From an uncultured Gammaproteobacteria bacterium (GTDB taxonomy: Bacteria > Patescibacteriota > Patescibacteriia > Patescibacteriales > UBA12465): 64,000 nt of DNA. The DNA lies in the NCBI GenBank assembly GCA_964639785.1, contig CAZXEE010000001.1:115832-179831 (forward strand). The letters are read 5' to 3'. The first letter of the stretch is position 1; the number at the start of each line of letters is the position of its first letter. This document shows, piece after piece, positions 1,835 to 57,994 of the stretch. The position numbers were made by a program, and so were the translations under genes. The notes below the pieces were generated by a model, which was not told the DNA's origin, did not search any database, and saw only the letters and a list, made by a program, of their open reading frames with translations.

Positions 1835-3316
1835 ATGATTAAAAAATCCGCTTTTACTCTTATTGAGCTCTTGGTGGTCATTGCCATTATTGGCATTTTA
1901 GCAACTATTTCTGTTGTTACTCTTTCAAATGCTCGGGCTAAGTCACGAGATGCTAAAAGAGTGGCCGACATGAAACAGGTTCAAACTGCTTTGGAGTTGT
2001 TTTTTAATGATAAGGGGCGGTATCCGACCGTTGATGAATTTAATTCTGGCTCTATATTTTCTACTTCTACTCTGGGAACGTCTACTTATATGCAGGTTGT
2101 TCCGAATGCTCCAGCGCCGGCTGATGGGTCTTGCACTAATGGTCAGAACGGGTTTTTTTATAGCCAGACCGATGATGGCAATTCTTATACTATTTCTTTC
2201 TGTCTGGGTAATGTTGTCGGGAACTTAGTTTCTGGGTCTAAATGTCTGACTCCTAATGGAGTGGCCGATGTTTATTGTGGTCCTTCTTGCTTGGTAGATC
2301 CAGAGGGTTGTTCTTGGCAGCTTGTTGGTTTAGCCGGTTTTTCTAGCGGAGGCGTTTCTGAAATTAATTTATTGGTTGACAATGGCATGCCATATGTCTC
2401 TTATTCTGATGCTTTTCGTTCTTCAAAGGCTACAGTCATGAAATATAATGGTTCGGATTGGGAATCGGTTGGAGCTCCGGGGTTTTCAGCTGGCATAGCT
2501 CAACATCCTTCTCTGGCTATTTATAATAATGTGCCCTATTTAGGTTATCGTGACCACGGCAATAATTCTAAGGCTACAGTCATGAAATATAATGGTTCGG
2601 ATTGGGAACCAGTCGGAACCACAGGGTTTTCGGCCGGTATAGCGGAATATCCAGTGTTAAGAATTTATAATGGTACGCCTTACCTAGCTTATTCTGACCA
2701 ACTTACATATTGGAAGGCTACAGTCATGAAATATAATGGTTCGACTTGGGAACCAGTCGGAACCACAGGGTTTTCGGCCGGCGGTACTGGCTATGAAGAT
2801 ATGGCGATTGATAGTGCTGGCACGCTTTATGTTTCTTTTTTTGATGATGTAAACTCTTGGAAGGCTACAGTCATGAAATATAATGGTTCGGCTTGGGAAT
2901 ATGTCGGATCTCCCGGAATTTCTGTTGGCGGCTCTTATCCTTCGTTAAGTATAAGCGAGAATGTCCCGTATCTTAGTTATGCCGATGAAGGTCTTTCTAA
3001 TGGTTTGGCAGTCAAGAGATATAACGGATCGGCTTGGGAATATGTCGGTGACACTAATTTTACACCAGGTACCGCCGCGTTTTATTCGTCTTTTTCTTAT
3101 GATGAAATACCCTATGTGGTTTTTATGGACTTTCAAAATTCCAATCGCCTTACGGTTATGAGATATAATGAATCAGGTTGGGAATTTGTAGGTGGTCCGG
3201 GGTTTTCATCGGTTCAGGCGTCTAAGGCCGTTTTATATATAGAGGATGGCAATTTGTACGTTGCTTATATTAGTAATGATGATTCAAAAATTTCAGTTAT
3301 GGAATTTACTCGTTAA
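1835..3316 (+). CDS. Type IV pilin-like protein: prepilin N-terminal methylation/cleavage helix fused to a repeat (beta-propeller-like) domain
   Basis: The N-terminus MIKKSAFTLIELLVVIAIIGILA is the class III signal/prepilin motif with Glu at +5. It is followed by at least 6 repeats of about 48 aa with the motif KATVMKYNGSxWExVG..GFS.G. Confidence 0.8.
   Translation: MIKKSAFTLIELLVVIAIIGILATISVVTLSNARAKSRDAKRVADMKQVQTALELFFNDKGRYPTVDEFNSGSIFSTSTLGTSTYMQVVPNAPAPADGSCTNGQNGFFYSQTDDGNSYTISFCLGNVVGNLVSGSKCLTPNGVADVYCGPSCLVDPEGCSWQLVGLAGFSSGGVSEINLLVDNGMPYVSYSDAFRSSKATVMKYNGSDWESVGAPGFSAGIAQHPSLAIYNNVPYLGYRDHGNNSKATVMKYNGSDWEPVGTTGFSAGIAEYPVLRIYNGTPYLAYSDQLTYWKATVMKYNGSTWEPVGTTGFSAGGTGYEDMAIDSAGTLYVSFFDDVNSWKATVMKYNGSAWEYVGSPGISVGGSYPSLSISENVPYLSYADEGLSNGLAVKRYNGSAWEYVGDTNFTPGTAAFYSSFSYDEIPYVVFMDFQNSNRLTVMRYNESGWEFVGGPGFSSVQASKAVLYIEDGNLYVAYISNDDSKISVMEFTR
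2426..3196 (+). repeat. Coding tandem repeat with 144/147-nt period inside the pilin-like gene
   Basis: The 30-nt string aaggctacagtcatgaaatataatggttcg recurs identically at 2426, 2570, 2714 and 2861. Two further degenerate copies lie near 3005 and 3150. Confidence 0.9.
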
Positions 3317-44255: not shown

Positions 44256-44933
44256 ATGAATCAAGAAAAAAATCAATTTTCGCTAGATGATAGCGAGACT
44301 TCCGGCTTTGAACAAAGACCGGAAATGAATCCGTTGACTAAGCAACAAAAAGTCTCTCTAATTTCTTTGGGAGTCTTTACGGTTTTAATAATAACTTTTG
44401 GAATCTTGCAGTTCCGTTATAATCTCTATTCACCTTTTGATTATAATAATAAGATTGCTTCCGGCCAGAAAACTAATACCGGCGGATCTAGCGAGGTCAC
44501 TACCGACCTGACTAAAATGGACAGTGATAATGACGGCTTGAATGATTATGATGAGATCAATGTCTACAAGACTTCAGCTTATCTGGAAGATAGCGATAGT
44601 GATGGATTCAGTGATAAGGATGAAATTTTGAATAACACTGACCCTAATTGCCCAGCTGGCCAAATCTGTACCCAAGTCAGTTCCGATACTGATAATAATA
44701 CCACCATCGCTTCGCCTGACGCCTTGGATTCGGCTAGCGAAAACTTGAGCAGTGAAGAAAAGACTGCTCAGGATATGCTAGAAGGCAAGAGCGATCCGGC
44801 TATTTTACGCAAATTGCTTTTAGATAATGGCATGAGCCAGGCTGATCTGGACAAGATCAGCGATGAAGAATTGATCTCTAGTTATCAGGAATCACTGAAT
44901 AAACAAAATTCTGCCTCTGCGACTCAGGAATAA
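44256..44933 (+). CDS. Membrane-anchored protein with Ca-binding thrombospondin type 3-like repeats
   Basis: It has one TM segment (VSLISLGVFTVLIITFGIL) and DSDNDGLNDYDE and DSDSDGFSDKDE repeats. It lies 33 nt upstream of the giant gene. Confidence 0.65.
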   Translation: MNQEKNQFSLDDSETSGFEQRPEMNPLTKQQKVSLISLGVFTVLIITFGILQFRYNLYSPFDYNNKIASGQKTNTGGSSEVTTDLTKMDSDNDGLNDYDEINVYKTSAYLEDSDSDGFSDKDEILNNTDPNCPAGQICTQVSSDTDNNTTIASPDALDSASENLSSEEKTAQDMLEGKSDPAILRKLLLDNGMSQADLDKISDEELISSYQESLNKQNSASATQE

Positions 44934-44966: not shown

Positions 44967-47900
44967 ATGAAAAAGCCAACCAAGAGGCTCTTTTTGAAGA
45001 GCATGCTCCTGATCCCAGTATTAGTTTTAGTTTTTGTGGCGACGCCAATCAAGCCGGCAGCGGCTCAAATCCCCGCTGATACCATCGGCGGTCCGGTTCA
45101 GGTCGTGATGAAGGTTGTTAGTCAGGTTACCAAGAAGTTGGATGCGGCTTTAAAGAAGGTTGGCTCCAATATGGTTCAGACAGCCATCACTAATTCTTTG
45201 AAGCGGGTAGCTTATGATACGGCTACTTGGATTGGTTCTGGCGCTGCTGGTCAGAAGGCTCAGTTTGCGACTGAAGGAACTGGCGCTTATCTTTTGAGTG
45301 TGGCTGATAGTGCGGCTGGCGATTATATCGATGAGTTTGCCAAGAATCTGAATGTCAATTTCTGTGAGCCTGACTTGAATGTTAAGGTTAAGATCGGTTT
45401 GGGCTTAGTGGATAGTGTCGAAGGCGGCAGCAAGATTAAAGATTCTAAGTGTAAAGCTAGCACCATGTTCAAGGCTTGGAAATCTGATATCAATGAAAAA
45501 TATAAGGCAATGACCAGTCCGACCTTTTTAAAGGATATGTCTAGCATGTTCGAGGTTGGAGGTAGTGATTTGACAGCCAGTTTGGAGGTTATGGATGGCA
45601 TCCAGAAGACGGTTTATGACAAGAAGGAGAAGGAAAAATTAGATCTGAGTATCGAAGGTTGGCTGCCTAACAAAAATATTGGTGGTAAGACTTCAGAGGC
45701 CCCAGGAAATGCCAAAATGCAATTGGAACAAGCAACTAAGAATACTTCTGAGGCTCAGAAGGTTAATATTTCCCAGAGTCCGGTAACTGATGCTGCTAAG
45801 GTTTTCTTGAATACTTTAGCTACTACGGCTTTTAATAAAGCTTTGAAGAGTTTGGCTGGGGGTGATATCAAAGGCACTCTTTCCGCTTTGACCTTAGGTA
45901 TTTATAAAGATAAGACTGACGCGGAAGTGGCAGAGTTGATAGCTAATGGCGGTTCATCCTCGTTGGCAGCAAATACCAATGGAACTTCTTGCTTGAATGA
46001 TCCGAATTGCGATCCGAATGTCTTCCAGGGTATCTCGGCTGTCAAATCTAATTTAGCTGAAATACTCAAGCCGAGTTTTGATTCCCGTGGCGATTATGAT
46101 ATTTTGAGCGAATTATCAGTTTGCTCCGATTCGACTAAGCCGGGACCAACCGAATGTATCTTGGATGAGCAATTCAGTTCGGCTATCAGCGATCACAAGA
46201 CCGTCATTGAAGCTATAAAGGATGGATCGTTGAATAAGACCTGGAGATTGAAGCGGGATGTCGATTTTAACCAAGGCTATTCTTTACGGTCTTTGTTAGT
46301 TTTGCGTAAATTCCGGATTATCCCTGTCGGTTGGGAAACTGCTTTGATTAAAGCGGAAGAGAATAATGCTAACGTGACCCTGATGGATATGGTTTCCTGT
46401 TTTGATCCTAATGATAATTATAATGAGTTCAGCCAAGGGTTTACTCCTTCTACCTGGTGCCAGGGATTGATCGATCCGAATTGGGTGTTGAAAGCCCCTT
46501 TAAATTATTGCAAACGCCAAGGTTATGGCAATCAGATCTTGGATAAGACTTTGATTGCAAAACAGACTGCTGGCAGCGAAGTTATCCCGGAAGAGATCAT
46601 TATGACCAGGGCTGATGAATATTGCGCTGATGAACAGAGCTGTATCAAAGAAAAGTCTGATGGCACTTGCGAAGCTTATGGCTATTGTACTGAAGAGAAG
46701 CGGACTTGGGACTTCGATTCTGATTCTTGCGATGCGATTTATAATACTTGCCAGAGATTTATAAAGACTAATGGAGCTAGCGTTTCTTATTTGGAAAATA
46801 CTATCGATTACAGCACTTGTAATGTTGATAATGCCGGTTGCCGGCCTTATGCCGTTTCCGGCTCTTATGATGGTTCTTCCGATAAGATTACTTGGAATTC
46901 TTCTAACCATATTTATTTTTCTAAGAAGGCTGAAGCTTGTGATAGCAGTCAGGAAGGTTGCAATGAATTAATCCGAATTATTCCAGAGGCCGGTCATAAT
47001 TTCCTGGTTAATTCTGATTTTGAACAAGACCTTAATATCGGTTCTTGGAATACTAATATTGATATTAATAATTCTTCTTCTACCAATAGTGTTTCTACTG
47101 TGGTTGATGGTTATTTTAGTGATACTTCTATTTCTGTCGGTGGTATATTGAAAAAAAATGTTGTCGTTGGACCGAATGATTATAATATCTCCGGTCGGAA
47201 TTACACTTTCTCTTTTTATGCTAAAAACTGCACTCTTGGCGACAAAGCAATTTTAGGCGGTGCTAATGTTGATGATCAAACCATTAATATGGGGGATGGA
47301 AATGAGTGGGCTTATTACAGTGTTAATTATAATTTCCCGCTTGGGTTATCCGATAATCATGTCTTTTTTTCTATCATTTCTAATAGTTGCCAAGTTGATC
47401 GTTTGAAATTAGAGATGTCAGGTGTTGGCACCCAGTATAGCAATTATCGGGATAACAGCTTAATTTATCAGAAATTGATTCCTGACTATTTAGCTTCGGA
47501 GTGTTATGTAAATTCTAATCCAGCTAGTCCTGATTATCGTTTGAAGCCTAATGCTTCAAACAAGTGTTCCGGTTATGCTCGGCGTTGTAATGCTTCGGAG
47601 GTTGATTGTGATCTGTATAAATCGGTTCGTGACGACTTCGTTCTGCCAGCTCGGGTAACTCCGAATGATTCTTGTTTTGCGGAGTGTGATGGTTATGATT
47701 CTTATATCAAGAAGGCGACCGCCTTTGCTAATCCGGAGTTGTCTAATTTTATCCCTAATAGCGCGACTAAGTGTGGCGCCAATGCTGTCGGCTGCACCGA
47801 ATTTACTAATTTGGATTCAGTGGCTAAGGGCGGAGAAGGCAAGGAGTATTATAGCTTCTTGCGTCAATGTATCAAGCCGGATAATAATGTCTGCGGGGTT

Positions 47901-50900
47901 TTCTACAGTTGGGGCAGTTCTAGTTCCGGTTATCAATTACAGCCTTCTAAGCTGAAAGCTTCGGCCGATAAGCCAGAACTTACTGCCGGAACTTTTGATG
48001 CTAATCGTAATCATGTGCTTGATGGCGCTGTTGTCTGCAGCGAAGCGATTTTCAATTCAGCTCCTTCCAGTTCAGCTTACAATTCTGATTGCCGCCAGTT
48101 CTATAATAAGGATGGTGTCATCTTCTATGCTTTGTATTCTAAAACTATCACTTGTTCCAATGATTGCCATCCATACCGTTTGAGCGAAACTCCGATTGAT
48201 GAGAGTATTACTTCAGCCGCTGCTTGTACTGGCGCTGACAAGAATTGGGATGCCAGTAGCACTGCTTGTATGGTTTGTAAGAATGGCGGTGTTTGGGATA
48301 ACACCCAATCAGCTTGTATCTATCAGGCTATTCCAGGTGAAGGTCGTTCTTGCGCCTCGACTGAAAATGGTTGTCGCGAATATAATGGCAATCATGGTAA
48401 TACTTCGAGGATTATTAATTCATATGATTTTGAGAGCAGCCAAGTTTGGGGCAGCTATTGTAACGATGCTTCATCTCTGAGTTCTGATTCTATCAATAAG
48501 AATGGTCACTCTTTGAACTATAATTATAATGGCGGTTCTTGCGGTACTAATAATTTTAATCTGGCGCCGGTAGTAGTCTCTAGCCGGCATAGCGACCCAA
48601 GCCTATTGGCTGTTATCAAGAACTTCTGGAGCCGAGTAATCAAGGGAGCTGAAGCGCAGTCTAATAATGCCTTGCCAAGCCATGGTATCGGTATAACTGT
48701 CGGCAAGACTGTCAACCAGAATTCTGCTTATGTCTTAAGATTCCTGGCTAAGGCCACCTCTAATGTTTCTATTAATGCTTATCTAGCTAATGGTACAGTG
48801 GCTTCTCAATTTAACGTTAATGCTCAGAATAATGGTTCTGTTTCTATTTCCGGTAATAATGAGTGGAAGATGTATACCGTCAATCTAGCCGCCTTAGACC
48901 ATGAGGTTACCGACCAGGAGGCTCTGATTATTTCCGCTTCCGGCGGTTTGCTGCTTGATGATATCACCCTGACCGAGGTGACTGATCGTTTTTATCTGAT
49001 CAAGGATTCATGGGTGACTCCGGATTCTTGCTACTACGATACTGCCAACCAGTATCAAGGCGTTAACTATAACTTAGGTTGCGGCGCTTATACTAATCGC
49101 GCTAATGCTACTTCATATCTCCGTAATTTCAGCCATCTCTGTTCTGATTCTTCCGCCGGTTGTGAATTGATGGCTTTGACTAATAATTCTTCCGATCCTG
49201 GCGTTCAGACTTTCAATGAATCCGGCACAGCCAATAACCAATGTGACGGCTCCGACGGCCCTTCTTGTGTCCAAGTTCCGGCTGACAAGATGGCCTATGT
49301 CATCTATGACACTACCAAGCAATGCGGTTCGGAAAATAAAGGCTGTTCCCGTTTAGGCCAGCAGACCGTTACCAACCAGGATGTTACCGTCCAGAACCTG
49401 TATGCCGATACTTACATCAAGAATAATCCGGATAAATATGACACCATCCTTTGCAGCGATAATGAAGTCGGTTGCGACGAATGGAAATATCTTGACGGCC
49501 AATCTAGCTACTTCAAGGACCCAGGCGATAATGTCTGTGAATGGCGCCGTCCGGTCAATGCTACCGGTATGAACTTGCCACAGAAATGGTACAAGAGGGC
49601 TATTAAGCGTTGCGATTTTGACAACAATGGCAAGATCAATATTGATGTTAATGGCAATATTACTGAATCTCAGAATAAGCTTTGTAATTCTGACACCGAT
49701 TGTAATTATAAGCCTTGTATCTTAGACAAGAATGATTATCTGTGCGAAGTCGATTCTTTGAAAACTATCGGCTTGGGCGGCGGCAATTTAGTCTACCAAC
49801 CGAAAACCATGGTCGGTGTCTGTGAAGCCAAGGCTTCCGGTTGTACTGAGTATGTCGACCCGGTCAGCGAATTCTCACCGAATAATATCGTCAATCCAGG
49901 CTGGGGAGATATCAACAAGGATGGCATCAAGGGTGATGGCTGGTCCACTTCTACTTTCCAAACTGTTCCGATGCAAAAGCAGACCGTCTATCTCTTGAAG
50001 AATAAGCTATATAGCTTGTCGGCTGTAGCTTCCGGCGCTACACAGGATACTATTTTGTCCTGTCCGGCTTCTGTCAGGGTTTTGCAGGCTGACAACAGCT
50101 TTGCCGCTCCGACTAACACTATCACTATCGACAATGTGGTGGCTAACAAGAATGTCCTCTTCAATTCTTTGAACAATGTCGCTTGCACCATCTATGGCGG
50201 TGAGAATAACAAGACGATCAGCCTGCGCGGCACTATCGTCGACTACAAGCTGTTGACGGGAGTTGATAAGACGACTTGTAACGGAGCAGCTAGCTTCGAT
50301 TCTGGTTGCATCTTGTTTAATGAAAGAAAACAGAACGGATCTTCCGGATTGAGCGCTATGACTTGGAATGCTTATGGCGGTTCATATAATTCTGCCTCTC
50401 CAATTACTCCGACCAATTTGGCTGATGCCGATTCCAATGTTTTGATTAAGGTCAAACCGAACCGGGTCTGTTCCAAATGGCTGTCTTGTATGAGCATGGG
50501 CATCGATTCCACTACCGGCGAGGAAGTCTGCTATGCCTTGGGAGAGTGCGACAAGCTGAACGATTTTGGCCGTTGCCAGAGTTTCGTTACCAAACCTGAA
50601 ATCCAGCATACTTTCGATTCCGGCTCCGACAGGAATATCACTGGCTACTCTAAGATGAATAACTATTACCTGTCTAATATGAGTGAGGTAGGTGAGGATT
50701 TGTCAGGCAATCCTAACGGTGGTAGCTGGGGGTTTGAGAGTACCAGTACTCCAGGATTTACAATTAATAATTATAACAAAGCCATTACAGATTTTTCCGT
50801 CATCGTTGGGGCTATAGATTATCCGGCTGTCGGCAAGGGCGTAGCCTTGATTGGCGGCAATGCTTCTACTACTCCTTCGAACCAAATAGCATCGCTAAGC

Positions 50901-52796
50901 TTTGCTGTTACTAATAAAGACAGGGAACACTTTGTTAACTTCTTGGTTAATATCGATGCTTCTGAGGGTGGTAAGTTAGAGGTTTCAGGAACTGGTTGGT
51001 CAGCTTCAACAATTATTGATTCTGGCACCGGTTGGCAAAGAAGGGTTTTACGTTTCGTTCCGACATCTAATGGAAATGCTGTAATTAAGTTATACAGTTC
51101 AAGTAATAGCGCTCCGACTTATTTTGATGATATCAATATTGAACCAGTCCTCAAGGTGGCTGATAATTCCTATGTCGCTAAGGAATGCCGTTTGTATCCT
51201 AAACAGGACAGCTTGTCTTGTAAGAGTGATAATCAGTCCGTGACGGCTAACGGCATCTACGGCTATTGCTTGGAACATGATCCGAAGAATCAGAATGTCT
51301 GTATCATGTGGTATCCGATTGATAACGTAAAGAGTAGCCAGGCCTCAGCTGGAACATTCAGCGGCTTTAATGGTTATAATGGGGTTACTAATCCATATTA
51401 TTGCGCTCAGATAACTCCTAATTACCAGTTCTTAGAGAAGAGATCGGCTTATCTGTTGACTAGCCAAAATTCTGATAATGGATGTACTTATTGGGCGGGG
51501 TTTCCTGTATTAAATCAATGTCCAGCTGGTTATAAGACATTTTTTATGAGATGGCAACACCATGAAGGCAATAATGCAAAATGTACGACAGATTATTTCT
51601 GTATTCCAGAGGGTGCTGGTTCTGATGTTGTTAGGGTTTGTGATCCTAATTCTGAATCAGCCAATCCAGGCGATCCAGCCGGCTGTTCCTCGGTTAATGG
51701 ACCTTATCCGCAAACATATGGGCCATTCTCTTATTTAGACGGATCGACTGCTTTTGTCTCTGGTTCATCTTTTGGTGGCGGTAATGGAGGTTATGATGCT
51801 TGGATAGAGGTTTCTGGCAATGGTTATTATATCTATAATGGAACCCAATCCCATGATAGTTTAATTGGTACTAAATTACTGGATTATGATGACAACACCG
51901 TTAAAGATACTAATGGTTTTGTGCCGAAATGTACTAAGTTTGTTAAGGGAAGTACCCCATGGGTCAAGAGATTGAGCGATGATGTAGTACCTCAATTCTT
52001 CAATGTTAATCCATATTCTAGTCTTCGACTTGGTTTTAATATTCAACCTTTTGGATCGACAGATCTCAGCACTACTAATCCAGGATTCCCTTATTCTTGT
52101 TATCCGGCTGGTGGTTTGACTAACAACGGCGCTGAATTATGCAAGACGGTTAACGTTGCTGCTAATGGAACTATATCCGTAAGCTATCAAGGTACTGGTC
52201 CGTATATTAATGGTACGACAGCAACATCAGCTAATTATTTAAGGCAGATATTCTTGAAAGGTGAGTCTGCGTCATCAGGATTTAGCTATAATTGTTTACT
52301 TGGAACTAATTGTCCTACAATAACTCCATGTAGCGGTAACACCCGTCCAAACAATAGTCCAACTACCGGTTATTGTTCTGTTTATCCGGACGTCATTGAC
52401 TCATCGATTAAGTTAAGAGATTCTGAGGGTCATTTAATCCCATACAATAATGGTTATGCTATCTCTACTCCTGGATACTATACTTTGAGTTTTGGTGTTT
52501 CAGTTGATCCTGAACAATTGCCGGTTAGCCAATTGTTGATTGATTTTGATGATGGAACCAATGCTGAGGCTACCCAGATTGATCCAAGTAATAACTATAA
52601 CTTCATCCATTATTTTAATCCTCAAACTGGACAGACGTCATATCATATCAGGATTAAGGTAAAGGATAATTGGGAGACTTTTGGATGGAGTGGGTTGCCA
52701 ACCAGTGGAGGTTGTAATGCTATTTTGTGTACTAAGAATAATTTTAGCTCAAATCTCGTTGGTCCGGGTCAGGCATGCCAAAATTGTCTCCAATAA
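44967..52796 (+). CDS. Giant (2609 aa) secreted/surface cysteine-rich protein with CBM-like beta-sandwich modules and a PKD-like C-terminal domain
   Basis: It is an uninterrupted 7.8 kb ORF with an N-terminal signal/anchor (LLIPVLVLVFVATPIKPAAAQ). Three segments begin with xxDFE and end with (L/F)DDIx(L/I)xE-like strands. The C-terminus DFDDGT..H.F..G.Y.I.I.V.D is PKD-like. Confidence 0.75.
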   Translation: MKKPTKRLFLKSMLLIPVLVLVFVATPIKPAAAQIPADTIGGPVQVVMKVVSQVTKKLDAALKKVGSNMVQTAITNSLKRVAYDTATWIGSGAAGQKAQFATEGTGAYLLSVADSAAGDYIDEFAKNLNVNFCEPDLNVKVKIGLGLVDSVEGGSKIKDSKCKASTMFKAWKSDINEKYKAMTSPTFLKDMSSMFEVGGSDLTASLEVMDGIQKTVYDKKEKEKLDLSIEGWLPNKNIGGKTSEAPGNAKMQLEQATKNTSEAQKVNISQSPVTDAAKVFLNTLATTAFNKALKSLAGGDIKGTLSALTLGIYKDKTDAEVAELIANGGSSSLAANTNGTSCLNDPNCDPNVFQGISAVKSNLAEILKPSFDSRGDYDILSELSVCSDSTKPGPTECILDEQFSSAISDHKTVIEAIKDGSLNKTWRLKRDVDFNQGYSLRSLLVLRKFRIIPVGWETALIKAEENNANVTLMDMVSCFDPNDNYNEFSQGFTPSTWCQGLIDPNWVLKAPLNYCKRQGYGNQILDKTLIAKQTAGSEVIPEEIIMTRADEYCADEQSCIKEKSDGTCEAYGYCTEEKRTWDFDSDSCDAIYNTCQRFIKTNGASVSYLENTIDYSTCNVDNAGCRPYAVSGSYDGSSDKITWNSSNHIYFSKKAEACDSSQEGCNELIRIIPEAGHNFLVNSDFEQDLNIGSWNTNIDINNSSSTNSVSTVVDGYFSDTSISVGGILKKNVVVGPNDYNISGRNYTFSFYAKNCTLGDKAILGGANVDDQTINMGDGNEWAYYSVNYNFPLGLSDNHVFFSIISNSCQVDRLKLEMSGVGTQYSNYRDNSLIYQKLIPDYLASECYVNSNPASPDYRLKPNASNKCSGYARRCNASEVDCDLYKSVRDDFVLPARVTPNDSCFAECDGYDSYIKKATAFANPELSNFIPNSATKCGANAVGCTEFTNLDSVAKGGEGKEYYSFLRQCIKPDNNVCGVFYSWGSSSSGYQLQPSKLKASADKPELTAGTFDANRNHVLDGAVVCSEAIFNSAPSSSAYNSDCRQFYNKDGVIFYALYSKTITCSNDCHPYRLSETPIDESITSAAACTGADKNWDASSTACMVCKNGGVWDNTQSACIYQAIPGEGRSCASTENGCREYNGNHGNTSRIINSYDFESSQVWGSYCNDASSLSSDSINKNGHSLNYNYNGGSCGTNNFNLAPVVVSSRHSDPSLLAVIKNFWSRVIKGAEAQSNNALPSHGIGITVGKTVNQNSAYVLRFLAKATSNVSINAYLANGTVASQFNVNAQNNGSVSISGNNEWKMYTVNLAALDHEVTDQEALIISASGGLLLDDITLTEVTDRFYLIKDSWVTPDSCYYDTANQYQGVNYNLGCGAYTNRANATSYLRNFSHLCSDSSAGCELMALTNNSSDPGVQTFNESGTANNQCDGSDGPSCVQVPADKMAYVIYDTTKQCGSENKGCSRLGQQTVTNQDVTVQNLYADTYIKNNPDKYDTILCSDNEVGCDEWKYLDGQSSYFKDPGDNVCEWRRPVNATGMNLPQKWYKRAIKRCDFDNNGKINIDVNGNITESQNKLCNSDTDCNYKPCILDKNDYLCEVDSLKTIGLGGGNLVYQPKTMVGVCEAKASGCTEYVDPVSEFSPNNIVNPGWGDINKDGIKGDGWSTSTFQTVPMQKQTVYLLKNKLYSLSAVASGATQDTILSCPASVRVLQADNSFAAPTNTITIDNVVANKNVLFNSLNNVACTIYGGENNKTISLRGTIVDYKLLTGVDKTTCNGAASFDSGCILFNERKQNGSSGLSAMTWNAYGGSYNSASPITPTNLADADSNVLIKVKPNRVCSKWLSCMSMGIDSTTGEEVCYALGECDKLNDFGRCQSFVTKPEIQHTFDSGSDRNITGYSKMNNYYLSNMSEVGEDLSGNPNGGSWGFESTSTPGFTINNYNKAITDFSVIVGAIDYPAVGKGVALIGGNASTTPSNQIASLSFAVTNKDREHFVNFLVNIDASEGGKLEVSGTGWSASTIIDSGTGWQRRVLRFVPTSNGNAVIKLYSSSNSAPTYFDDINIEPVLKVADNSYVAKECRLYPKQDSLSCKSDNQSVTANGIYGYCLEHDPKNQNVCIMWYPIDNVKSSQASAGTFSGFNGYNGVTNPYYCAQITPNYQFLEKRSAYLLTSQNSDNGCTYWAGFPVLNQCPAGYKTFFMRWQHHEGNNAKCTTDYFCIPEGAGSDVVRVCDPNSESANPGDPAGCSSVNGPYPQTYGPFSYLDGSTAFVSGSSFGGGNGGYDAWIEVSGNGYYIYNGTQSHDSLIGTKLLDYDDNTVKDTNGFVPKCTKFVKGSTPWVKRLSDDVVPQFFNVNPYSSLRLGFNIQPFGSTDLSTTNPGFPYSCYPAGGLTNNGAELCKTVNVAANGTISVSYQGTGPYINGTTATSANYLRQIFLKGESASSGFSYNCLLGTNCPTITPCSGNTRPNNSPTTGYCSVYPDVIDSSIKLRDSEGHLIPYNNGYAISTPGYYTLSFGVSVDPEQLPVSQLLIDFDDGTNAEATQIDPSNNYNFIHYFNPQTGQTSYHIRIKVKDNWETFGWSGLPTSGGCNAILCTKNNFSSNLVGPGQACQNCLQ

Positions 52797-52870
52797 GTTA
52801 ATTTGACAGAATTAATATAATATGCCATAATATTAGGCATATAATCCATGGCTCATTGAAAAATAAGGTT

Positions 52871-52931
52871 TATTAGGTTAATTATTGAGATTATCCAGTG
52901 TTTTTGGGTATTTTCAATAATTAACCTAATA
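52871..52931. repeat. Perfect 16-bp inverted repeat (stem) with 29-nt spacer
   Basis: tattaggttaattatt (52871-52886) is the exact reverse complement of aataattaacctaata (52916-52931). Confidence 0.85.
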
Positions 52932-52958
52932 TTGTTTAACCTTAAAAATCGATAAATC

Positions 52959-54158
52959 ATGAAAACATTAAGAGTTTTCTTCATCACATTGCTCGTTGCT
53001 TTGATTTGCCCATTTTTTGTCTCTGCCCAGACATACACTTTTGAAGAGATGACTAACCCCGACCCCAATTCTAATAATTTAGTTTGTATAACTAACGTCG
53101 GTAATGTCTTGTTCGCTGGGGGAGATAATGGAACTCTCCTCAAATATAATGGATCTGCCTGGCTGCAGATTGCTAATTCCCAATCCGGACAGATTAAATC
53201 AATTTATGCGGCTAGCGAAAATGATGTCTGGATGACTTTTGATAATGCCATATTCCATTATAATGGATCAACTATTTCGGCTGTTAATATCGGGACCTCA
53301 AACCACATTATGGAAATTATTGGATTTGCTGCCAACGATATTTATGCCTGCGGTTCATTTGGTACTTTTTACCATTATAATGGATCAAATTGGTCTGCGA
53401 TTAATGGCATTCCTGGTGGTGTTAGCTTGGGCGACATGTGTGGGTTGTCCAATGATATTTATCTTACCGGTGAAGATGAAGCATCGCCTTATACCAGAAG
53501 GATGTTTCATTATGATGGTGTTAATTTAACCGAAGTGGTCTCTGGGGTTTATGGTTATGGATGGTATGATATATGGTCTCCGGATAACAATTTGTTTTAT
53601 TTGGGTGGTCGTGAGCTTTATAAATTCGATAAAACTGCCGGAACCGTAGATCAGATCTTTGATGGTTATAATAACCCATTTGGCTTTAGCGCTAATTGTA
53701 TCATTGATTTTTGGAATAGTGGCATGTCAAATGTTGATAGTATCCGAATCTATAACGGTACTACCTGGAAAACGCTTCAGGATCCGATTTATTCCGTTAG
53801 GGATCTATGTTCGCCAACCAATAATCCTAACAATATCTTTATAGTTAGTGATAATGGAGTAATCCGTCATATGGTTATAACTACCGGCATTGAGGAAACA
53901 GCCTTGAATCCAACAAGATTCGACGTTTATCCCAACCCGGCCACTGATCTGGTGACCATTGATCTGAATTTCGACCAGAAGACCGATACCAAGATTGAAC
54001 TTTTCGATGTCGTTGGGCAACGACTTGAACTGATTTCTGACTTCGGGGGTAACGAAGATCAGATCACTTTCAATGTTGGTGAACTGCCTCATGGACTTTA
54101 CCTGATAAAGGTAACTGACCGTGAAGGTAGAGTGGTTAGTAAAAAACTGACCAAATAA
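52959..54158 (+). CDS. Secreted beta-propeller-like repeat protein with T9SS-type (Por_Secre_tail-like) C-terminal sorting domain
   Basis: It has a signal peptide (..FFVSA/QT) and repeats (Y/F)(N/D)G(S/T)xWxx(I/V). The C-terminal approximately 80 aa, VYPNPATDLVTIDL..ELFDVVGQ..LPHGLYLIKV..GRVVSKKLTK, matches the T9SS CTD pattern. Confidence 0.75.
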   Translation: MKTLRVFFITLLVALICPFFVSAQTYTFEEMTNPDPNSNNLVCITNVGNVLFAGGDNGTLLKYNGSAWLQIANSQSGQIKSIYAASENDVWMTFDNAIFHYNGSTISAVNIGTSNHIMEIIGFAANDIYACGSFGTFYHYNGSNWSAINGIPGGVSLGDMCGLSNDIYLTGEDEASPYTRRMFHYDGVNLTEVVSGVYGYGWYDIWSPDNNLFYLGGRELYKFDKTAGTVDQIFDGYNNPFGFSANCIIDFWNSGMSNVDSIRIYNGTTWKTLQDPIYSVRDLCSPTNNPNNIFIVSDNGVIRHMVITTGIEETALNPTRFDVYPNPATDLVTIDLNFDQKTDTKIELFDVVGQRLELISDFGGNEDQITFNVGELPHGLYLIKVTDREGRVVSKKLTK

Positions 54159-54215: not shown

Positions 54216-54246
54216 ATAAAACCCAGTACTAGATACTGGGTTTTTT
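54216..54246. terminator. Rho-independent terminator; copy 1 of an identical 30-nt hairpin repeat
   Basis: ataaaacccagtactagatactgggttttt has the stem aaacccagta / tactgggttt. The identical string recurs at 57948-57977. Confidence 0.85.
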
Positions 54247-54427
54247 ATTTGTTAAATTTTTCATAAAAATATGTTTATTAAATGGCCAAATTTAATAATT
54301 ATTATATATTTTCATCGAGTTTTTAATATGTTGACTTTTTTGTTTAAATATGAGAATATTATTTGTTAGTAATTTTTTGCTAATAAATAAACAAGTTTTG
54401 AACATTAACAATTTAAAATTGAGAGTC

Positions 54428-55843
54428 ATGAAGAAGGACAAAAGAGAATCTGTGTCAAAAAATTCAAAATTTATTATTCTTTTCCCGTCTGGAGAAGAAA
54501 AAATAATCAATCAGGATTTTTTGGGAAAAATGTCTTTTTCTGATGATAAGCCGTTAAATTCTTTAATTAATAATGAATTTAAGGGTTTGCCAGGGAAAGA
54601 GGTGCCATCAATACAGGCTATGCAAAGATTGGAGCTTGTAGATTATGAATCTGCTAGCGATAGCGGCCATTTCCGTTTTTATCCAAAGGGATTTTTGGTT
54701 TATGAATTAATTAAATCGTGGGCAGATGGAATTGCTGACGAGCTTAATTGTTTTAAAATCAAAACACCTCTACTCTATGATTGGAATCATCCGGCTATTC
54801 GTTCGCAGGGTGAGTCATTCCATGAAAGACATTATTCGGTTTCTGGATCTGACAAAGAAAAAGAGTTTGTGATGCGTTTTGCTGGCGATTTTGGGCTTTT
54901 CAGTATGATATCTAATGCCCAGCTGACATACAAACATCTGCCACTGAGAATCTATGAATTTTCTGATAGCTTTCGCTACGAACTTCATGGTGAATTATCT
55001 GGATTGCGGAGATTGCGCGCTTTTTCCATGCCGGACATCCACAGTTTCTGTGAAGATGTTTCACAGGGAATGGAGGAGTACAAAGTTCTTTTTAAAAAGT
55101 ATGCTGATTTGATCGTGAAGAGTGGTGTTGAATATGGGGTTGTATTTCGTGTAGTAGCAGACTTTTATAAAGAGAATAAAGCTGAAATCTGTGAGTTGTT
55201 GAATTACTGCCAAAAATCAGCAATGATTGAAATTCTCCCAGAAATGAAGCATTATTGGGCAATGAAGCATGAATTCTGCAGTATTGATGCCGTAGACGGG
55301 GTTTGTCAGCTTTCTACCGTCCAATTAGACGTGGAGGATGCTGAGCGTTATGGCATTAAATATCGCTCCAAAGAAGACGGAGAGAAAGGATGTATTATTT
55401 GTCATAGCTCTGTCGGTTCAGTTGAAAGATGGATGTTTTCTATTTTAGAGGATGCTTTAAAAAGGGAAAAACCATCACTGCCTTTCTGGTTGTCACCGGT
55501 CCAGATCAGATTAATCCCGGTTTCTAGCCAATATTTGGATAAAACTGAGATGTTTTATTCAATGTTAAGCAAAAACAATGTCAGGATTGACATTGATAAT
55601 TCAAATAACAGTGTTGGCTGGAAGATAAGGCAAGCAGAAAAAAATTGGGTGCCGTTGGTGATTGTTGTTGGTGAAAAGGATGATTTGAATTTAAATTTTT
55701 CCGTACGTCTGAGAAGTGGAAAAATTGAAAATTATGATCTGCCGGAATTTGAGAAAATGTTGAAATCTCTTTCTGATGATTTCCCAACCGTTGGTCTGTT
55801 TTACAAGTACGTATCTAACTATCCGATATTTCGGGGGAGGTAA
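54428..55843 (+). CDS. thrS: Threonyl-tRNA synthetase-like class IIa enzyme (archaeal-type catalytic core plus anticodon-binding domain, no editing or TGS domain)
   Basis: It has motif 2-like FRYELHGELSGLRRLRAFSMPDIHSFC, motif 3-like CHSSVGSVERW, and WLSPVQIRLIPV plus an HGTP-anticodon-like C-terminus. I prefer ATG 54428 over the track start at 54350. Confidence 0.7.
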   Translation: MKKDKRESVSKNSKFIILFPSGEEKIINQDFLGKMSFSDDKPLNSLINNEFKGLPGKEVPSIQAMQRLELVDYESASDSGHFRFYPKGFLVYELIKSWADGIADELNCFKIKTPLLYDWNHPAIRSQGESFHERHYSVSGSDKEKEFVMRFAGDFGLFSMISNAQLTYKHLPLRIYEFSDSFRYELHGELSGLRRLRAFSMPDIHSFCEDVSQGMEEYKVLFKKYADLIVKSGVEYGVVFRVVADFYKENKAEICELLNYCQKSAMIEILPEMKHYWAMKHEFCSIDAVDGVCQLSTVQLDVEDAERYGIKYRSKEDGEKGCIICHSSVGSVERWMFSILEDALKREKPSLPFWLSPVQIRLIPVSSQYLDKTEMFYSMLSKNNVRIDIDNSNNSVGWKIRQAEKNWVPLVIVVGEKDDLNLNFSVRLRSGKIENYDLPEFEKMLKSLSDDFPTVGLFYKYVSNYPIFRGR

Positions 55844-55845
55844 TT

Positions 55846-56904
55846 ATGATTATTGAATTAGATGATTATTGTTTGGAAATATTTTTCCAACATGCCCAAT
55901 TAGAGGTTACGGGAAGATGTAATATGCATTGTCATCATTGTCGTGCCTGGGATGAAGCTAAAATTGATCTTAGTTTCGCAAAAATTCAAAAGGTTATTGA
56001 CTTTTTGATTAGTGAGCGCGATCCAAAAGATTTACGTTTAACTATTTCTGGAGGGGAACCATTCTTAAGAAAGGACCTGGCTGAAATTATTTTTTTAGCA
56101 AAGGAGAAAGGAGTGGATAATATTATTATTACCACTAACGGATCCCTCGTTACTGAAAAAAAAATAAAAGAATTGACAGATATTGGTATCCAAAATTTGT
56201 CAATTCAGGTCAGTCTTGACGGTATATCCTCTGACATTCATGACTCTTTCAGGGAGTATAAAGGAGCTTTTAACAAGGCTATAAACGCCTTGAAGTTAGT
56301 GGCTGATTCACCTGCAATTGCTTCTTTGCGTACTACGGTTTTGCCAGGGACAATTAATGATTTAGAAAAGTTAGTTGACCTTGGTTTAAAATTAGGAGTC
56401 GAAAGAATTGGAATTGGTTCTGTAATACCTGCTGGCCGGGGCAAGATGGACGAATCTATTTTGATGAATCCAAATGAAAAAAAGGCTTTATTAACAAAAA
56501 TTACTAATCTTAAGAAGCTTTATCCAGGGCTAGATATTACCACTGAAGATCCTTTGAAATTTTGTACCAATGATCCAGTTTGGGAATATGGCGACTTTGA
56601 TATTAGCGATGATACCTTTTTTGGGGGTTGTACTGCTGGAATAACAGGATTTAATGTGGATAGTAGCGGGTTGGTTACTCCATGCGCTGTCTTCTTAGAG
56701 CCAATTTTGGTGGTTGAAAATCAAAGTATAGATTCTATGATTGAAGCCTATCAAAATTCAGGTGTTATCAAGGCCCTAGCTTCCAGAAAATTTTCTGGTA
56801 AATGCGGGTCTTGTTCGTTAAAACGTTTGTGCGGTGGTTGCAGGGCTGTTGCCCAGGGGTATTCCGGTGACTATTTAGGATCCGATCATACTTGTTGGAG
56901 ATAA
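55846..56904 (+). CDS. Radical SAM enzyme with C-terminal SPASM domain
   Basis: It has CNMHCHHC (CX3CX2C), the GGEPF SAM-binding motif, and the SPASM pattern GGC-x12-G-x4-C ... CGSCSLKRLCGGC ... C. A GGAGG SD lies 5 nt upstream, inside the end of the ThrRS-like gene. Confidence 0.85.
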   Translation: MIIELDDYCLEIFFQHAQLEVTGRCNMHCHHCRAWDEAKIDLSFAKIQKVIDFLISERDPKDLRLTISGGEPFLRKDLAEIIFLAKEKGVDNIIITTNGSLVTEKKIKELTDIGIQNLSIQVSLDGISSDIHDSFREYKGAFNKAINALKLVADSPAIASLRTTVLPGTINDLEKLVDLGLKLGVERIGIGSVIPAGRGKMDESILMNPNEKKALLTKITNLKKLYPGLDITTEDPLKFCTNDPVWEYGDFDISDDTFFGGCTAGITGFNVDSSGLVTPCAVFLEPILVVENQSIDSMIEAYQNSGVIKALASRKFSGKCGSCSLKRLCGGCRAVAQGYSGDYLGSDHTCWR

Positions 56905-56917
56905 TAAGTTTAATCCT

Positions 56918-56951
56918 GGGGTGAGGCTTGCCTCACCCCTTTAATTTTATT
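56918..56951 (+). terminator. Strong GC hairpin plus T-rich tail after the radical SAM gene
   Basis: ggggtgagg-cttg-cctcacccc (9-bp perfect stem) is followed by tttaattttatt. Confidence 0.65.
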
Positions 56952-56954
56952 GCC

Positions 56955-57749
56955 ATGGAAAGTCTGTTTGAATTATTTAATCAAAAATTTTTTGGAAAAG
57001 CTAAGATTGTAGTTATTGGCAGTAGTATCAGGAATAAATTAGCTGTTAATAATAATTGGCATTTTCCTGATTTGATAATAAAGCACCATCTTGATGTCTT
57101 GATTGAAATTCCGAGTATGAATGAGATAAAATTAGTTAACGAAATATTAAATTATTTCAAGGCTGATCCTATAACCGACTTGTGTTATTCTGCTGTAATT
57201 AATGGATTAGACTTAGAATTCATCGGCGTTATAATTAATAAAGAATTGTTTTCTGTCAAATTGGTAAAGCTGCCAGCTAGACCAGATTTAACAATAGAAA
57301 GATTCGGTTATTATAACACCATGGAGTGTTATGACGAGTCAGGAAATGGTTTTAGCGATTTTAATTCCAGAGAGTTAGTGTTGATGAATAATAATCTGTT
57401 CTTGCAAAAGTATTTAAAGGTCATGTCTCTGAAGTTCCAAACGGGATTTAATTTAGAAGATAACACCGCTAAACAAATTTATTTGTTTGAAAATAATTTG
57501 AATATTCCAGAAAAAAGACAGAAAATTAAGTTTGATTATAATAATAAATTGTTTAAATCTTACAAAAGATATGATCCTGGAGATATTTATCGGGTTGGTA
57601 TCCACGTTGCTTTGATGTATTTAAGGGCTAGGAGCTATGAAGAGGTCACTGATTATATTCATTCCCGCTATAAATTAAAGAAATATTTAGATTTTGTGGG
57701 TGTTGATTATCATAATTTTGAAATTCAGCTTAAAAATAAGTTATTTTGA
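56955..57749 (+). CDS. Hypothetical protein; possible divergent tRNA nucleotidyltransferase/poly(A) polymerase-head-like fold with degenerate catalytic motif
   Basis: ATG 56955 avoids the hairpin. VIGSSIRNKL..PDLII resembles GGxVRDxLL..DxD, RPDLTIERF resembles RRDFTINA, and YDESGNGFSDF resembles DpxgGxxDL. These are eye alignments only. Confidence 0.35.
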   Translation: MESLFELFNQKFFGKAKIVVIGSSIRNKLAVNNNWHFPDLIIKHHLDVLIEIPSMNEIKLVNEILNYFKADPITDLCYSAVINGLDLEFIGVIINKELFSVKLVKLPARPDLTIERFGYYNTMECYDESGNGFSDFNSRELVLMNNNLFLQKYLKVMSLKFQTGFNLEDNTAKQIYLFENNLNIPEKRQKIKFDYNNKLFKSYKRYDPGDIYRVGIHVALMYLRARSYEEVTDYIHSRYKLKKYLDFVGVDYHNFEIQLKNKLF

Positions 57750-57977: not shown

Positions 57978-57994
57978 AATATTTTGAAAAAAAT

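Follow-up and report, generated by a model that had tools for sequence, protein, structure and literature searches.

How does a sorting domain of the type IX secretion system (T9SS) come to sit at the end of a protein encoded in a genome of the CPR/Patescibacteria type? The C-terminal domains (CTDs) of T9SS cargo are taken as a hallmark of Bacteroidota and related bacteria with an outer membrane, and a full-text literature search found no paper that discusses them in Patescibacteria. The question is raised by P0001, a protein encoded in the 64,000-nucleotide stretch of DNA analysed here (the window) and recorded in identical form in NCBI and Logan assemblies. The gene and the parts of its product are:

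52959..54158, + strand: propeller-CTD gene (P0001), 399 aa, from the open-reading-frame list
52959..53027, + strand: Sec-type signal peptide, aa 1-23 (cleavage between MKTLRVFFITLLVALICPFFVSA and Q), assigned by inspection
53034..53906, + strand: seven-bladed beta-propeller, aa ~26-316, from the AlphaFold model and Foldseek; hypervariable across strains and species
53925..54155, + strand: type A T9SS C-terminal domain, aa 323-399, from PF18962, TIGR04183, the PDB profile and the CTD-only model

The signal peptide, as assigned by inspection, consists of a hydrophobic stretch (aa 3-21) followed by V-S-A/Q, the slash marking cleavage; A23 and Q24 are invariant or nearly so in the family, where the cleavage motif is kept as FAQ. 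A lipoprotein signal peptide, an idea suggested by a conserved Cys-Pro, was rejected because position -1 is often I or L and the canonical A-x-A/Q lies downstream. The body of the protein carries the blade motif YNGSxW at residues 63, 101, 140, 185 and 265, is modelled at a pLDDT of about 90-97 over most blades, and is nearest in fold to Ycf48, to the periplasmic sensor propellers BT4663/BT4673 and to PorZ. With Ycf48/HCF136 it has the 7-bladed propeller fold in common (TM-score about 0.7 for Ycf48), but the likeness to these proteins and to the BT4663-type sensors is one of fold only, without sequence membership, and P0001, unlike them, has no link to photosystem II or two-component signalling. 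P0001 has no match to PF14870 (PSII_BNR) at E≤1; matches to that model occur only in distant relatives, at 22-25% identity. The Bacteroidota-like proteins P0030 and P0034 (~400 aa), which combine PSII_BNR with Por_Secre_tail, equal P0001 in length and architecture, but their identity to it is only 22-25%. PorZ (5m11), one of the top structural matches for both the full model and the CTD, likewise runs from propeller to type A CTD; it differs from P0001 in that its propellers number two and its role within the attachment complex is defined.

The extreme C-terminus of P0001 (aa 323-399 of 399) is a genuine type A T9SS CTD. Residues 323-397 match Pfam PF18962 (Por_Secre_tail) with E=2.4e-14 and 53.8 bits over model positions 1-73 of 75, and NCBIfam TIGR04183 scores 42 bits; the cut-offs are 27 bits (gathering) and 23 bits, respectively. 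A profile of the family CTD, compared with the PDB, retrieves the solved CTDs of T9SS substrates (8glk_D, E=6.5e-11; 8glj_D, 9.6e-7), the mirolase CTD (1.6e-8) and, weakly, that of RgpB. The domain modelled by itself is a beta-sandwich of 7 strands (pLDDT 86), and its best Foldseek matches include the mirolase CTD (8qb1), PorZ, and the CTDs of RemZ (8gl8_D) and RemA (8gl6_D), bound in the SprA-PorV translocon. The original prediction, which had read the last ~80 residues as such a domain and proposed searching with CTD models, is thus borne out by both models, well above their curated cut-offs, and by fold and PDB profile. Within the family alignment Y-P-N-P, G42, L65, G68, Y70 and the C-terminal K85 are invariant. 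P0001 therefore resembles the type A cargo proteins RgpB, mirolase, RemA and RemZ in having a Sec signal peptide and a C-terminal beta-sandwich of ~75 aa, and in its PNP, G, GxY and K motifs; unlike them, it is encoded by a presumably monoderm CPR bacterium without detectable T9SS in the DNA checked, and genes of its type are fixed beside a CPR-specific giant protein.

The identity of the carrier is supported by sequence comparison of a housekeeping gene: the carrier is assigned to CPR/Patescibacteria, Candidatus Falkowbacteria, because RpoC from the window clusters at ≥90% identity with a named Falkowbacteria protein (PIT94337.1), and syntenic orthologues carry the NCBI label Patescibacteria. 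This agrees with the earlier impression of a CPR-type genome. Patescibacteria are described as monoderm (PMC11665869). Among the ~50 genes of the window are four T4SS_pilin-family proteins, a type IV pilin, DsbA, an L,D-transpeptidase, MurJ and a Mur ligase; tRNA and Rfam scans of the window were empty. A search for T9SS machinery had been suggested, and neither T9SS nor outer-membrane genes were found in the 64-kb window or in ~120 kb of related CPR loci (genome of at least 547 kb), in keeping with the view that nothing else in the window is FCB-like. A CTD HMM found no other CTD protein in ~183 kb of CPR DNA (partial genomes), apart from a tandem duplicate in locus L005. The same HMM detects unrelated Bacteroidota cargo (a hydrolase in locus L011, 42 bits) and finds two additional CTD proteins in about 70 kb of Bacteroidota-like loci. 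Because the HMM finds this gene alone, the CTD, as judged from ~183 kb, apparently does not serve the CPR as a sorting signal shared by many proteins.

These observations bear directly on the most conventional explanation, that P0001 is ordinary cargo sorted in cis by a T9SS that an atypical Falkowbacteria lineage encodes, along with an outer membrane, elsewhere in its genome. The CTD is conserved with every hallmark residue, and the inspected part amounts to about 12% of the longest known contig, both of which are compatible with this explanation. We nevertheless consider it very unlikely, given the ~50 window genes and the annotated flanks of the CPR loci with neither T9SS nor outer-membrane genes, the contrast in CTD gene number between the CPR and the Bacteroidota-like DNA, and the monoderm envelope described for the phylum. 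A T9SS requires about a dozen or more genes, and a system of that size would be unlikely in a genome this small.

Where, then, are the relatives of this gene? The closest relatives of the window copy lie in Bacteroidota genomes (53-57% identity), and across the family the CPR and Bacteroidota proteins are 53-64% identical. The family is rare: among 185,579 GTDB species representatives we found one orthologue, on a 4.3-kb contig. Closest homologues in Bacteroidota, together with a gene G+C (0.396) slightly under the window average (0.42), are what one would expect if a Bacteroidota gene had been misjoined to CPR contigs during assembly or binning. This possibility is effectively refuted, since both junctions recur in independent samples and pipelines (contigs of 43 kb, 54 kb, 115 kb and 547 kb) and since a protein identity of just 53-64% means that the CPR and Bacteroidota genes are not the same DNA. 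The G+C of the CTD is 0.43, like that of the genome, and that of the propeller 0.386, while the Bacteroidota loci lie at 0.30-0.32; the window copy is therefore largely ameliorated, and composition was discarded as a signal of recent transfer.

The Bacteroidota relatives (53-64% identity) are real genes that lie beside other CTD cargo. The YebC protein of locus L011 has named relatives at 70-74% identity that are all from Bacteroidota, except one MAG labelled Chlorobi, and the same locus carries a second CTD cargo protein. Proteins of L013 match NCBI '[Bacteroidota bacterium]' MAG proteins exactly, and L018 and L015 are linked to L011 and L013 through neighbouring genes that are 80-84% identical. 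No counterparts of the Bacteroidota neighbours (a 279-aa protein, 225/228-aa proteins and PDDEXK_2 proteins) were found in the CPR loci. On viral contigs, relatives of the family reach at most 32% identity, leaving a viral vector unsupported.

Separate phylogenies of propeller and CTD, as had been suggested, show that both parts cross the phylum boundary. In the propeller tree the window copy and the Bacteroidota sequences P0003 and P0004 form a group (100% bootstrap) apart from the other CPR copies. A second, type II clade (100%) unites the CPR loci L021 and L022 with Bacteroidota P0010 and P0011, L022 pairing with P0011 (94% bootstrap, 64% identity). There are thus two deeply diverged propeller types, each present in both phyla. 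In the CTD tree the window copy falls in the Bacteroidota clade (97%), and the CTD of L022 is 70% identical to that of Bacteroidota P0003, while most CPR copies form a diverged, CPR-only CTD clade with 100% bootstrap.

The likeness between the phyla extends to the non-coding DNA on both sides of the gene, which has the following elements:

52803..52831, + strand: candidate sigma-70-like promoter, TTGACA-17-CATAAT with an upstream TG, from a consensus scan (11/12; consensus match only)
52864..52944, + strand: long 5'-leader hairpin with a covarying core at 52873-52929, from folding and covariation
54218..54244, + strand: intrinsic terminator hairpin, AAAACCCAGTACTAGATACTGGGTTTT followed by a T-run, from a terminator scan and folding

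The candidate promoter starts just past the stop codon of the preceding gene, which encodes the giant protein described below. The leader hairpin has a minimum free energy of -36.9 kcal/mol (z=-8.4), and across 8 CPR loci 11 of its 21 pairs show compensatory changes, with 98.6% of cells paired; 0 of 500 shuffles reach the observed pairing, and controls in which the structure was slid along the sequence give 25-53%. An invertible promoter was considered as an explanation of the inverted repeat and rejected, the arms being only ~13-20 nt apart and the G-U pairs pointing to a hairpin in sense-strand RNA. A cross-phylum alignment of leaders shows that the 3' arm of the hairpin, followed by TAACCTTnAAAATC...ATG, is common to the Bacteroidota leaders. 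The terminator has blastn matches 3' of the gene in L003, L005 (both paralogues) and L016, and in the Bacteroidota loci L011 and L018.

Both propeller types occur in both phyla, with a leader part and a terminator in common, and this distribution would therefore seem to require at least three inter-phylum transfers. Their number and direction are read from neighbour-joining trees that span 81 and ~289 columns and sample Bacteroidota sparsely. Because CPR sequences surround the Bacteroidota pair within the type I clade, some of the transfers may have run from CPR to Bacteroidota. Horizontal acquisition from Bacteroidota, one of the explanations first offered for this locus, is strongly supported by the nearest relatives, by trees that mix the phyla and by the common flanking elements; its two companions, re-use of the CTD as a binding module and mimicry of host cargo, stay hypothetical. 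Bacteroidota are reported to be among the more frequent donors of horizontally transferred genes to Patescibacteria (PMC12455944); the transfers described there between the two groups concern single genes with housekeeping or metabolic roles, gyrB for example. A surface protein with a secretion tag and allelic types exchanged more than once, the features of the present case, do not figure in that study. Repeated swapping of one gene between two phyla hints at a close physical partnership.

Taken with the features above, the pattern leads us to a reading that we hold to be reasonably probable: P0001 belongs to an exchanged cassette of the T9SS-cargo type, which the CPR has put to new use as a variable module exported by Sec to the cell surface. 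The putative cassette would comprise its own promoter, leader, Sec signal peptide, variable 7-bladed propeller, type A CTD and terminator, and would have moved repeatedly between Bacteroidales-like Bacteroidota and one narrow Candidatus Falkowbacteria lineage. In Bacteroidota the CTD would act as a working sorting signal for type IX secretion; in the presumably monoderm Falkowbacteria, which as far as checked have no T9SS, export would most likely proceed via Sec alone.

This leaves a further question: What would such a module do at the surface of a CPR cell? A clue is provided by the genes upstream, to which the CPR propeller-CTD gene is invariably tied:

44256..44933, + strand: 225-aa single-pass membrane protein with TSP3 (calcium-binding) repeats (PF18884), first gene of the module
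44967..52796, + strand: giant secreted Cys-rich protein, 2,609 aa, upstream of the propeller-CTD gene, from synteny
51384..52796, + strand: variable C-terminal ~470 aa of the giant protein, co-varying with the propeller

A new finding is that the propeller-CTD gene of the CPR is always paired with a secreted giant protein of ~2,600 aa. The giant gene lies directly 5' of the propeller-CTD gene in every CPR locus recovered (the window, L002, L003/4, L005, L016, L017, L019, L021 and L022), and the order KsgA / TSP3 / giant / propeller-CTD recurs in independent JGI, ENA, Logan and NCBI assemblies; no CPR locus recovered has an empty slot lacking the propeller-CTD gene. The giant protein has only an N-terminal signal peptide, contains 3.5% Cys and matches nothing in Pfam beyond a weak hit to CBM_4_9. 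No recognisable anchor was found in it or in the propeller-CTD protein; the TSP3 protein has a TM-like segment at aa 33-51, and its position is kept in all CPR loci.

Comparison of the window with L002, a strain of the same species, shows where this module varies. The flanking DNA is 98-99% identical and the CTD 100%, while the propeller is only 51% identical. The divergence is confined to a tract that runs from residue ~2140 of the giant protein through the whole propeller and, in a codon-level comparison, ends near 53907, where the propeller gives way to the CTD; the giant protein is 99.8% identical over the first 2,100 alignment columns, against 38% over its variable C-terminus. Over 7 CPR loci the identities of the giant C-terminus and the propeller correlate (Mantel r=0.82, p=0.0056), and in the same kind of test on CPR loci the identity of the CTD correlates with neither. 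Physical linkage in shared recombination tracts could give rise to this co-variation without interaction between the proteins, and the complete identity of the two CTDs may be due simply to their position beyond the edge of the tract that recombined.

One might suppose from the independent evolution of the CTD, and from the failure to find its cognate machinery in the DNA checked, that it arrived with a useful propeller and is now a decaying, functionless passenger in the CPR. This seems unlikely to us, as no CPR copy has a truncated or broken CTD and the motif residues are invariant, though propeller identity falls to 28-45%; within the CPR-only clade the CTDs are 54-69% identical and the corresponding propellers 43-58%, so that CTD conservation at least equals that of the propeller. 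The recombination tract, moreover, stops exactly at the CTD boundary, and streamlined CPR genomes would be expected to erode 80 useless codons. A T9SS CTD thus appears to be kept where it is probably unable to act as a secretion signal, and the annotation 'T9SS type A sorting domain-containing protein' may therefore mislead in CPR genomes.

We return to the reuse of the cassette as a surface module. In this reading the propeller-CTD protein would work on the outside of the cell in company with the giant Cys-rich protein, whose gene precedes its own, and the membrane TSP3 protein is a candidate anchor. The propeller would be the variable, ligand-facing part, evolving as a polymorphic adhesin or receptor, and the CTD, no longer a T9SS signal in cis, would persist as a folded beta-sandwich with another binding or docking role. 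TSP3 anchor, giant protein and propeller-CTD protein would then form a compact hypervariable surface module, a candidate device for host recognition. The exchange of the cassette also offers a concrete clue to the partner organisms of Falkowbacteria, the hosts of uncultured CPR being a long-standing open problem.

A bolder version places the function of the CTD outside its own cell: a Falkowbacteria epibiont would show a host-type CTD, from the outside, to PorV, PorU and PorZ, parts of the T9SS shuttle and attachment machinery exposed on the surface of a host from the Bacteroidota lineage with the same gene, in a tether that might be made covalent by the PorU sortase, with the giant protein holding the propeller on the CPR side. 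Several observations fit, namely the closeness of several CPR CTDs to the Bacteroidota type (L022 and the window copy), a CTD that stays constant while the propeller is swapped between strains, the co-variation of giant C-terminus and propeller, and the match of the family CTD profile to substrate CTDs solved with the translocon. Repeated gene flow between just two lineages would also suggest physical intimacy, as has been argued in general for transfer pairs (PMC12455944). Most CPR copies, however, hold the diverged CPR-only CTD, which is unlike continuous matching to a host. The T9SS recognises CTDs that arrive from the periplasmic side and is not known to recognise them from the cell exterior; on balance we regard this version as improbable. 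If true, it would mean that a secretion signal has been turned into a ligand for attachment between species, the co-varying tip of the giant protein gripping the variable propeller, and it would give a CPR lineage its first known host, a Bacteroidales-like bacterium.

The window encodes one further protein with blades of this kind:

1835..3316, + strand: modular type IV pilin, with a prepilin N-terminus and a YNGSxW propeller-like module, from PF07963 and TIGR02532

The pilin assignment rests on PF07963 (28.9 bits, cut-off 21.2) and TIGR02532 (29.4 bits, cut-off 16.3), and the protein has six YNGSxW repeats at aa 204-449. The original prediction held that its blades and those of P0001 are of the same type. 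The YNGSxW motif is indeed present in both, and a remote homology is detected: BLASTP gives E=0.005, the family HMM finds the pilin fusion as its sole match in the window besides P0001 (E=1.4e-4), and hhalign aligns it to the P0001 family with a probability of 88% (E=2.9e-6, 139 columns). A recent common domain is not supported, and the two sets of blades are, on these alignments, best described as remote homologues rather than close relatives. Modular type IV pilins are known from PilB of Streptococcus sanguinis and from >1,200 others, many of them in CPR including Falkowbacteria (10.1101/2021.01.27.428410). The YNGSxW-blade module of the window pilin lies outside the architectures named in the main text of that study, and the protein, in which a repeat module is grafted onto a prepilin N-terminus, conforms to the 'carrier plus effector module' design published there.

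The following gene carries a C-terminal domain (CTD) that had been predicted to be a type A sorting domain of the type IX secretion system (T9SS):

52959-54158, + strand: propeller-CTD gene (the target), an ORF of 399 aa

The last ~77 residues of the target match PF18962 (Por_Secre_tail; E=2.4e-14; 53.8 bits, gathering cut-off 27 bits; model positions 1-73 of 75), and its C-terminus matches the NCBIfam model TIGR04183 at 42 bits (cut-off 23 bits). When a profile made from the CTDs of the target family was searched against experimentally solved structures, it found the T9SS substrate CTD 8glk_D (E=6.5e-11), the mirolase CTD (E=1.6e-8), 8glj_D (E=9.6e-7) and, weakly, the CTD of gingipain RgpB. 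AlphaFold models the CTD alone as a 7-stranded beta-sandwich (pLDDT 86); among the top structures that Foldseek aligns with it are the CTD of mirolase and, as captured in the SprA-PorV translocon, those of RemZ and RemA. Because curated models, profile matches to solved CTDs and model fold agree, far beyond chance, we are highly confident that the domain is a genuine type A T9SS CTD, as predicted. In the full-length model (pLDDT 84.9), a cleavable N-terminal helix is followed by a 7-bladed beta-propeller and then the sandwich; the predicted propeller resembles Ycf48, the Bacteroides BT4663/BT4673 sensor propellers, and PorZ. Orthologues are annotated by the NCBI pipeline as "T9SS type A sorting domain-containing protein" of a Patescibacteria group bacterium, and thus the bare domain match is already in databases; a full-text literature search found no papers discussing T9SS CTDs in Patescibacteria.

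That the carrier is a CPR bacterium was borne out: the window RpoC shares a cluster of at least 90% identity with PIT94337.1 of Candidatus Falkowbacteria, which NCBI places in the Parcubacteria group of the Patescibacteria group, and syntenic target orthologues carry the NCBI label Patescibacteria. A Pfam scan of ~50 genes in the window (64 kb of a 546,729-bp NCBI contig bearing the exact target protein) detected RpoB, RpoC, FtsK, a Mur ligase, MurJ, an L,D-transpeptidase, DsbA, PFOR subunits, a type IV pilin and four T4SS_pilin-family proteins, and no T9SS, LPS or outer-membrane genes in these 64 kb. Patescibacteria are described as monoderm (PMC11665869), and we consider it very improbable that a T9SS is hidden elsewhere in the genome.

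In CPR loci the target belongs to a fixed three-gene module, in the order KsgA, a 220-225-aa TSP3-repeat protein, a giant of ~2,600 aa, the propeller-CTD protein and tRNA synthetases. The order from KsgA to propeller-CTD is present in L002 (a second strain of the window species) and in the CPR loci L003/L004 and L005; at L016 and L017 the upstream fragment is the C-terminus of the giant, and three more loci with the module (L019, L021, L022) were found via a conserved giant segment. Among the loci recovered, none has the giant gene without the propeller-CTD gene. Because the same order is repeated across independent Logan, JGI, ENA and NCBI assemblies, the idea that the target is an assembly artefact can practically be dismissed. 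The family has about 16 close members among 5.8 billion clustered proteins, and a single target orthologue occurs among 185,579 GTDB species representatives. The TSP3 protein crosses the membrane in a single pass; in the giant (3.5% Cys), as in the target, the only such element is an N-terminal signal peptide. At L005 the propeller-CTD gene is a tandem duplicate (10001-11224 and 11476-12693) with leader and terminator on both copies, the second being nearly identical to the gene of L007, a landfill MAG. TSP3 (calcium-binding) repeats occur both in the L,D-transpeptidase (37520-38137) and in the membrane protein whose gene opens the module (44256-44933), which may point to a common mode of anchoring that depends on the wall or on calcium.

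The window and L002 represent one species, with DNA identity of 99.05% over 43043-51371 and 98.3% downstream, and differ by a replaced tract of ~2.5 kb (51384-53906) that runs from the giant's C-terminal ~470 aa across the intergenic region and through the whole propeller. In a codon-level comparison, the giant is 99.8% identical in the first 2,100 alignment columns; identity is ~38% from about residue 2140 to the end. The propeller as a whole (aa ~38-316) is ~51% identical and the CTD (aa 316-399) shows no amino-acid change and seven synonymous ones; therefore the replaced tract stops at the domain boundary. Propeller and giant tip have been replaced jointly, as alleles, next to a constant CTD. 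Across seven CPR loci (Mantel test, exhaustive permutations), the more alike the propellers, the more alike the giants in their C-terminal 450 aa (r=0.82, p=0.0056); CTD identity follows neither (r=-0.13 and 0.08), and giant core identity is steady at 64-72% across the CPR loci compared. The covariation is consistent with giant tip and propeller working as a pair, and linkage in shared recombination tracts would produce the same signal. A giant with a co-varying tip in fixed linkage to a propeller-CTD gene appears to be new.

The closest relatives of the target are located in Bacteroidota genomes. P0003, whose full-length identity to the target is 53%, is encoded on a contig of 53 kb (L011) that also carries genes for GH2 and GH92 glycosidases, LacI, ROK, a TPR-histidine kinase and one further cargo protein with a CTD; named relatives of the YebC on this contig at 70-74% identity are all Bacteroidota except one Chlorobi-labelled MAG. 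The neighbours of P0011 are DUF4369-AhpC, Fib_succ_major, DUF2851 and Peptidase_M14; two neighbouring proteins are on record at NCBI, with identical sequence, from a MAG labelled "Bacteroidota bacterium", and the P0010 and P0004 loci are linked to those of P0003 and P0011 via neighbour genes 80-84% identical. G+C is 0.30-0.34 in the Bacteroidota loci, 0.42 in the CPR window and 0.396 in the target gene. No family members were found on viral contigs. Neighbour-joining trees with bootstrap, made for propeller and CTD apart and rooted on distant PSII_BNR+CTD proteins from Bacteroidota-like contexts, resolve two deep propeller types, with both phyla represented in each.

Propeller types, their support and their carriers
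Type I, support 95%: CPR window, L002, L003, L005a/b, L007, L016, L017; Bacteroidota P0003, P0004
Type II, support 100%: CPR L021, L022; Bacteroidota P0010, P0011

P0008 and P0012, assigned to neither phylum, also fall inside the type I clade. Window, L002, P0003 and P0004 form a 100%-supported group inside type I, and L022 pairs with P0011 inside type II (support 94%, identity 64%). In the CTD tree a CPR-only clade (100%) holds the majority of CPR copies, and Bacteroidota-flavour CTDs are found in the window species, L021 and L022: the first tree placed the CTDs of window and L002 with those of Bacteroidota (97%), and the L022 CTD is 70% identical to that of P0003. Judged from these sequences, at least three inter-phylum events would be needed under any rooting. 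Horizontal acquisition, one of the origins originally proposed, thus agrees with the Bacteroidota affinity of the nearest relatives, the mixture of phyla in each propeller type and the shared flanks, and we regard exchange of the gene between CPR and Bacteroidota as very probable. According to one study (PMC12455944), Patescibacteria have received other genes from Bacteroidota relatively often; repeated exchange of two allelic types appears to be new.

Orthologous Bacteroidota loci (L011/L018 and L013/L015) bear unlike propeller types (35-37% identity) and similar CTDs (60-85%): P0003 and P0010 share 85% in the CTD and 37% in the propeller, P0004 and P0011 60% and 35%. Because these loci swap the propeller and keep the CTD, the constant-tag/variable-propeller design is not CPR-specific; its presence in both phyla appears to be new.

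The non-coding flanks travel along with the gene: a ~40-nt 5' leader (CTAAT..TAACCTT.AAA....TAATC-ATG) is common to CPR type I loci and Bacteroidota L011 and L018, and a palindromic terminator is likewise recognisable in them. The window has these hairpins:

52864-52944 (core 52873-52929): 5'-leader hairpin of the target gene, MFE -36.9 kcal/mol, z=-8.4
54218-54244 and ~57950-57976: terminator hairpin pair (AAAACCCAGTACTAGATACTGGGTTTT), 66-nt repeat, 82% identical

The leader hairpin, which has no Rfam match, is kept in eight CPR loci with compensatory change in 11 of 21 pairs, and its G-U pairs indicate that it forms in RNA of the sense strand; type II CPR loci (L021, L022) have a strong Shine-Dalgarno sequence in its place. 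A Shine-Dalgarno motif precedes 1 of 42 window genes, leaders being A/T-rich, and is equally scarce in Bacteroidota loci (L011 0/14, L013 0/11); such compatibility of translation signals might help genes to pass between the two lineages. The two terminator copies flank the ThrRS-like, rSAM and 273-aa genes. These lie in a low-G+C block (54350-59681, 0.27-0.37 vs 0.42-0.44) that adjoins the target gene and encodes a truncated ThrRS, a radical SAM/SPASM protein, the 273-aa orphan, an amidohydrolase and a GNAT protein. The ThrRS is archaeal-type (best model NF003068) and lacks the N-terminal editing domain; L003 and L005 have a normal bacterial ThrRS (589-593 aa) instead, and the block may be an acquired island displacing native thrS.

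What does the CTD do in CPR? The family CTD HMM also detects unrelated Bacteroidota cargo (an L011 hydrolase at 42 bits, two L010 proteins), and its hits in ~183 kb of CPR DNA are confined to this one slot. The domain is intact in every CPR copy, with invariant hallmark residues, and within the CPR-only clade CTDs are 54-69% identical and propellers 43-58%. Intact, with its hallmark residues kept, and limited to one slot, the CTD is therefore retained, and not as a general sorting signal; that it is a hitch-hiker without function seems unlikely. We propose that the target would be exported by Sec via its signal peptide (VSA|Q) and, together with the giant, function at the surface of the CPR cell, where the TSP3 membrane protein may anchor it. 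The propeller would form a polymorphic ligand-binding face, and the CTD, presumably unable to work in cis, would serve as a docking beta-sandwich. The target could alternatively attach in trans to the PorV/PorU complex of a Bacteroidota host, which we consider just as unlikely as the hitch-hiker. We hold the surface module with a docking CTD to be about evenly balanced between right and wrong, and the whole account, observed and proposed parts together, to be somewhat more probable.

The original prediction also saw one ectodomain type behind two export devices, the second being a 493-aa pilin fusion (1835-3316, + strand) with a prepilin N-terminus (PF07963, TIGR02532) and six YNGSxW repeats. 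It is the only other window protein matched by the propeller HMM (E=1.4e-4), and hhalign aligns three blades with the target family (88% probability, E=2.9e-6). By sequence comparison its blades are remote homologues of the target propeller; the claim is fair as to homology, and the two are not close relatives. Modular pilins are common in CPR, including Falkowbacteria, and the fusion fits this published class (10.1101/2021.01.27.428410).

Elsewhere in the window, the T4SS_pilin domain (PF18895) occurs in four proteins (6740-7225, 29799-31049, 31981-33372, 33408-34544; one below cut-off), three of whose genes are consecutive on the minus strand between pyruvate:ferredoxin oxidoreductase subunit genes. 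A 496-aa ORF directly 3' of rpoC (20052-21542) has no match in Pfam or NCBIfam. Two Fic/DOC-domain proteins, one with an N-terminal HTH, are encoded less than 5 kb apart (38177-39148, 42514-43401), and L003, L005 and L021 lack the second gene at this place.
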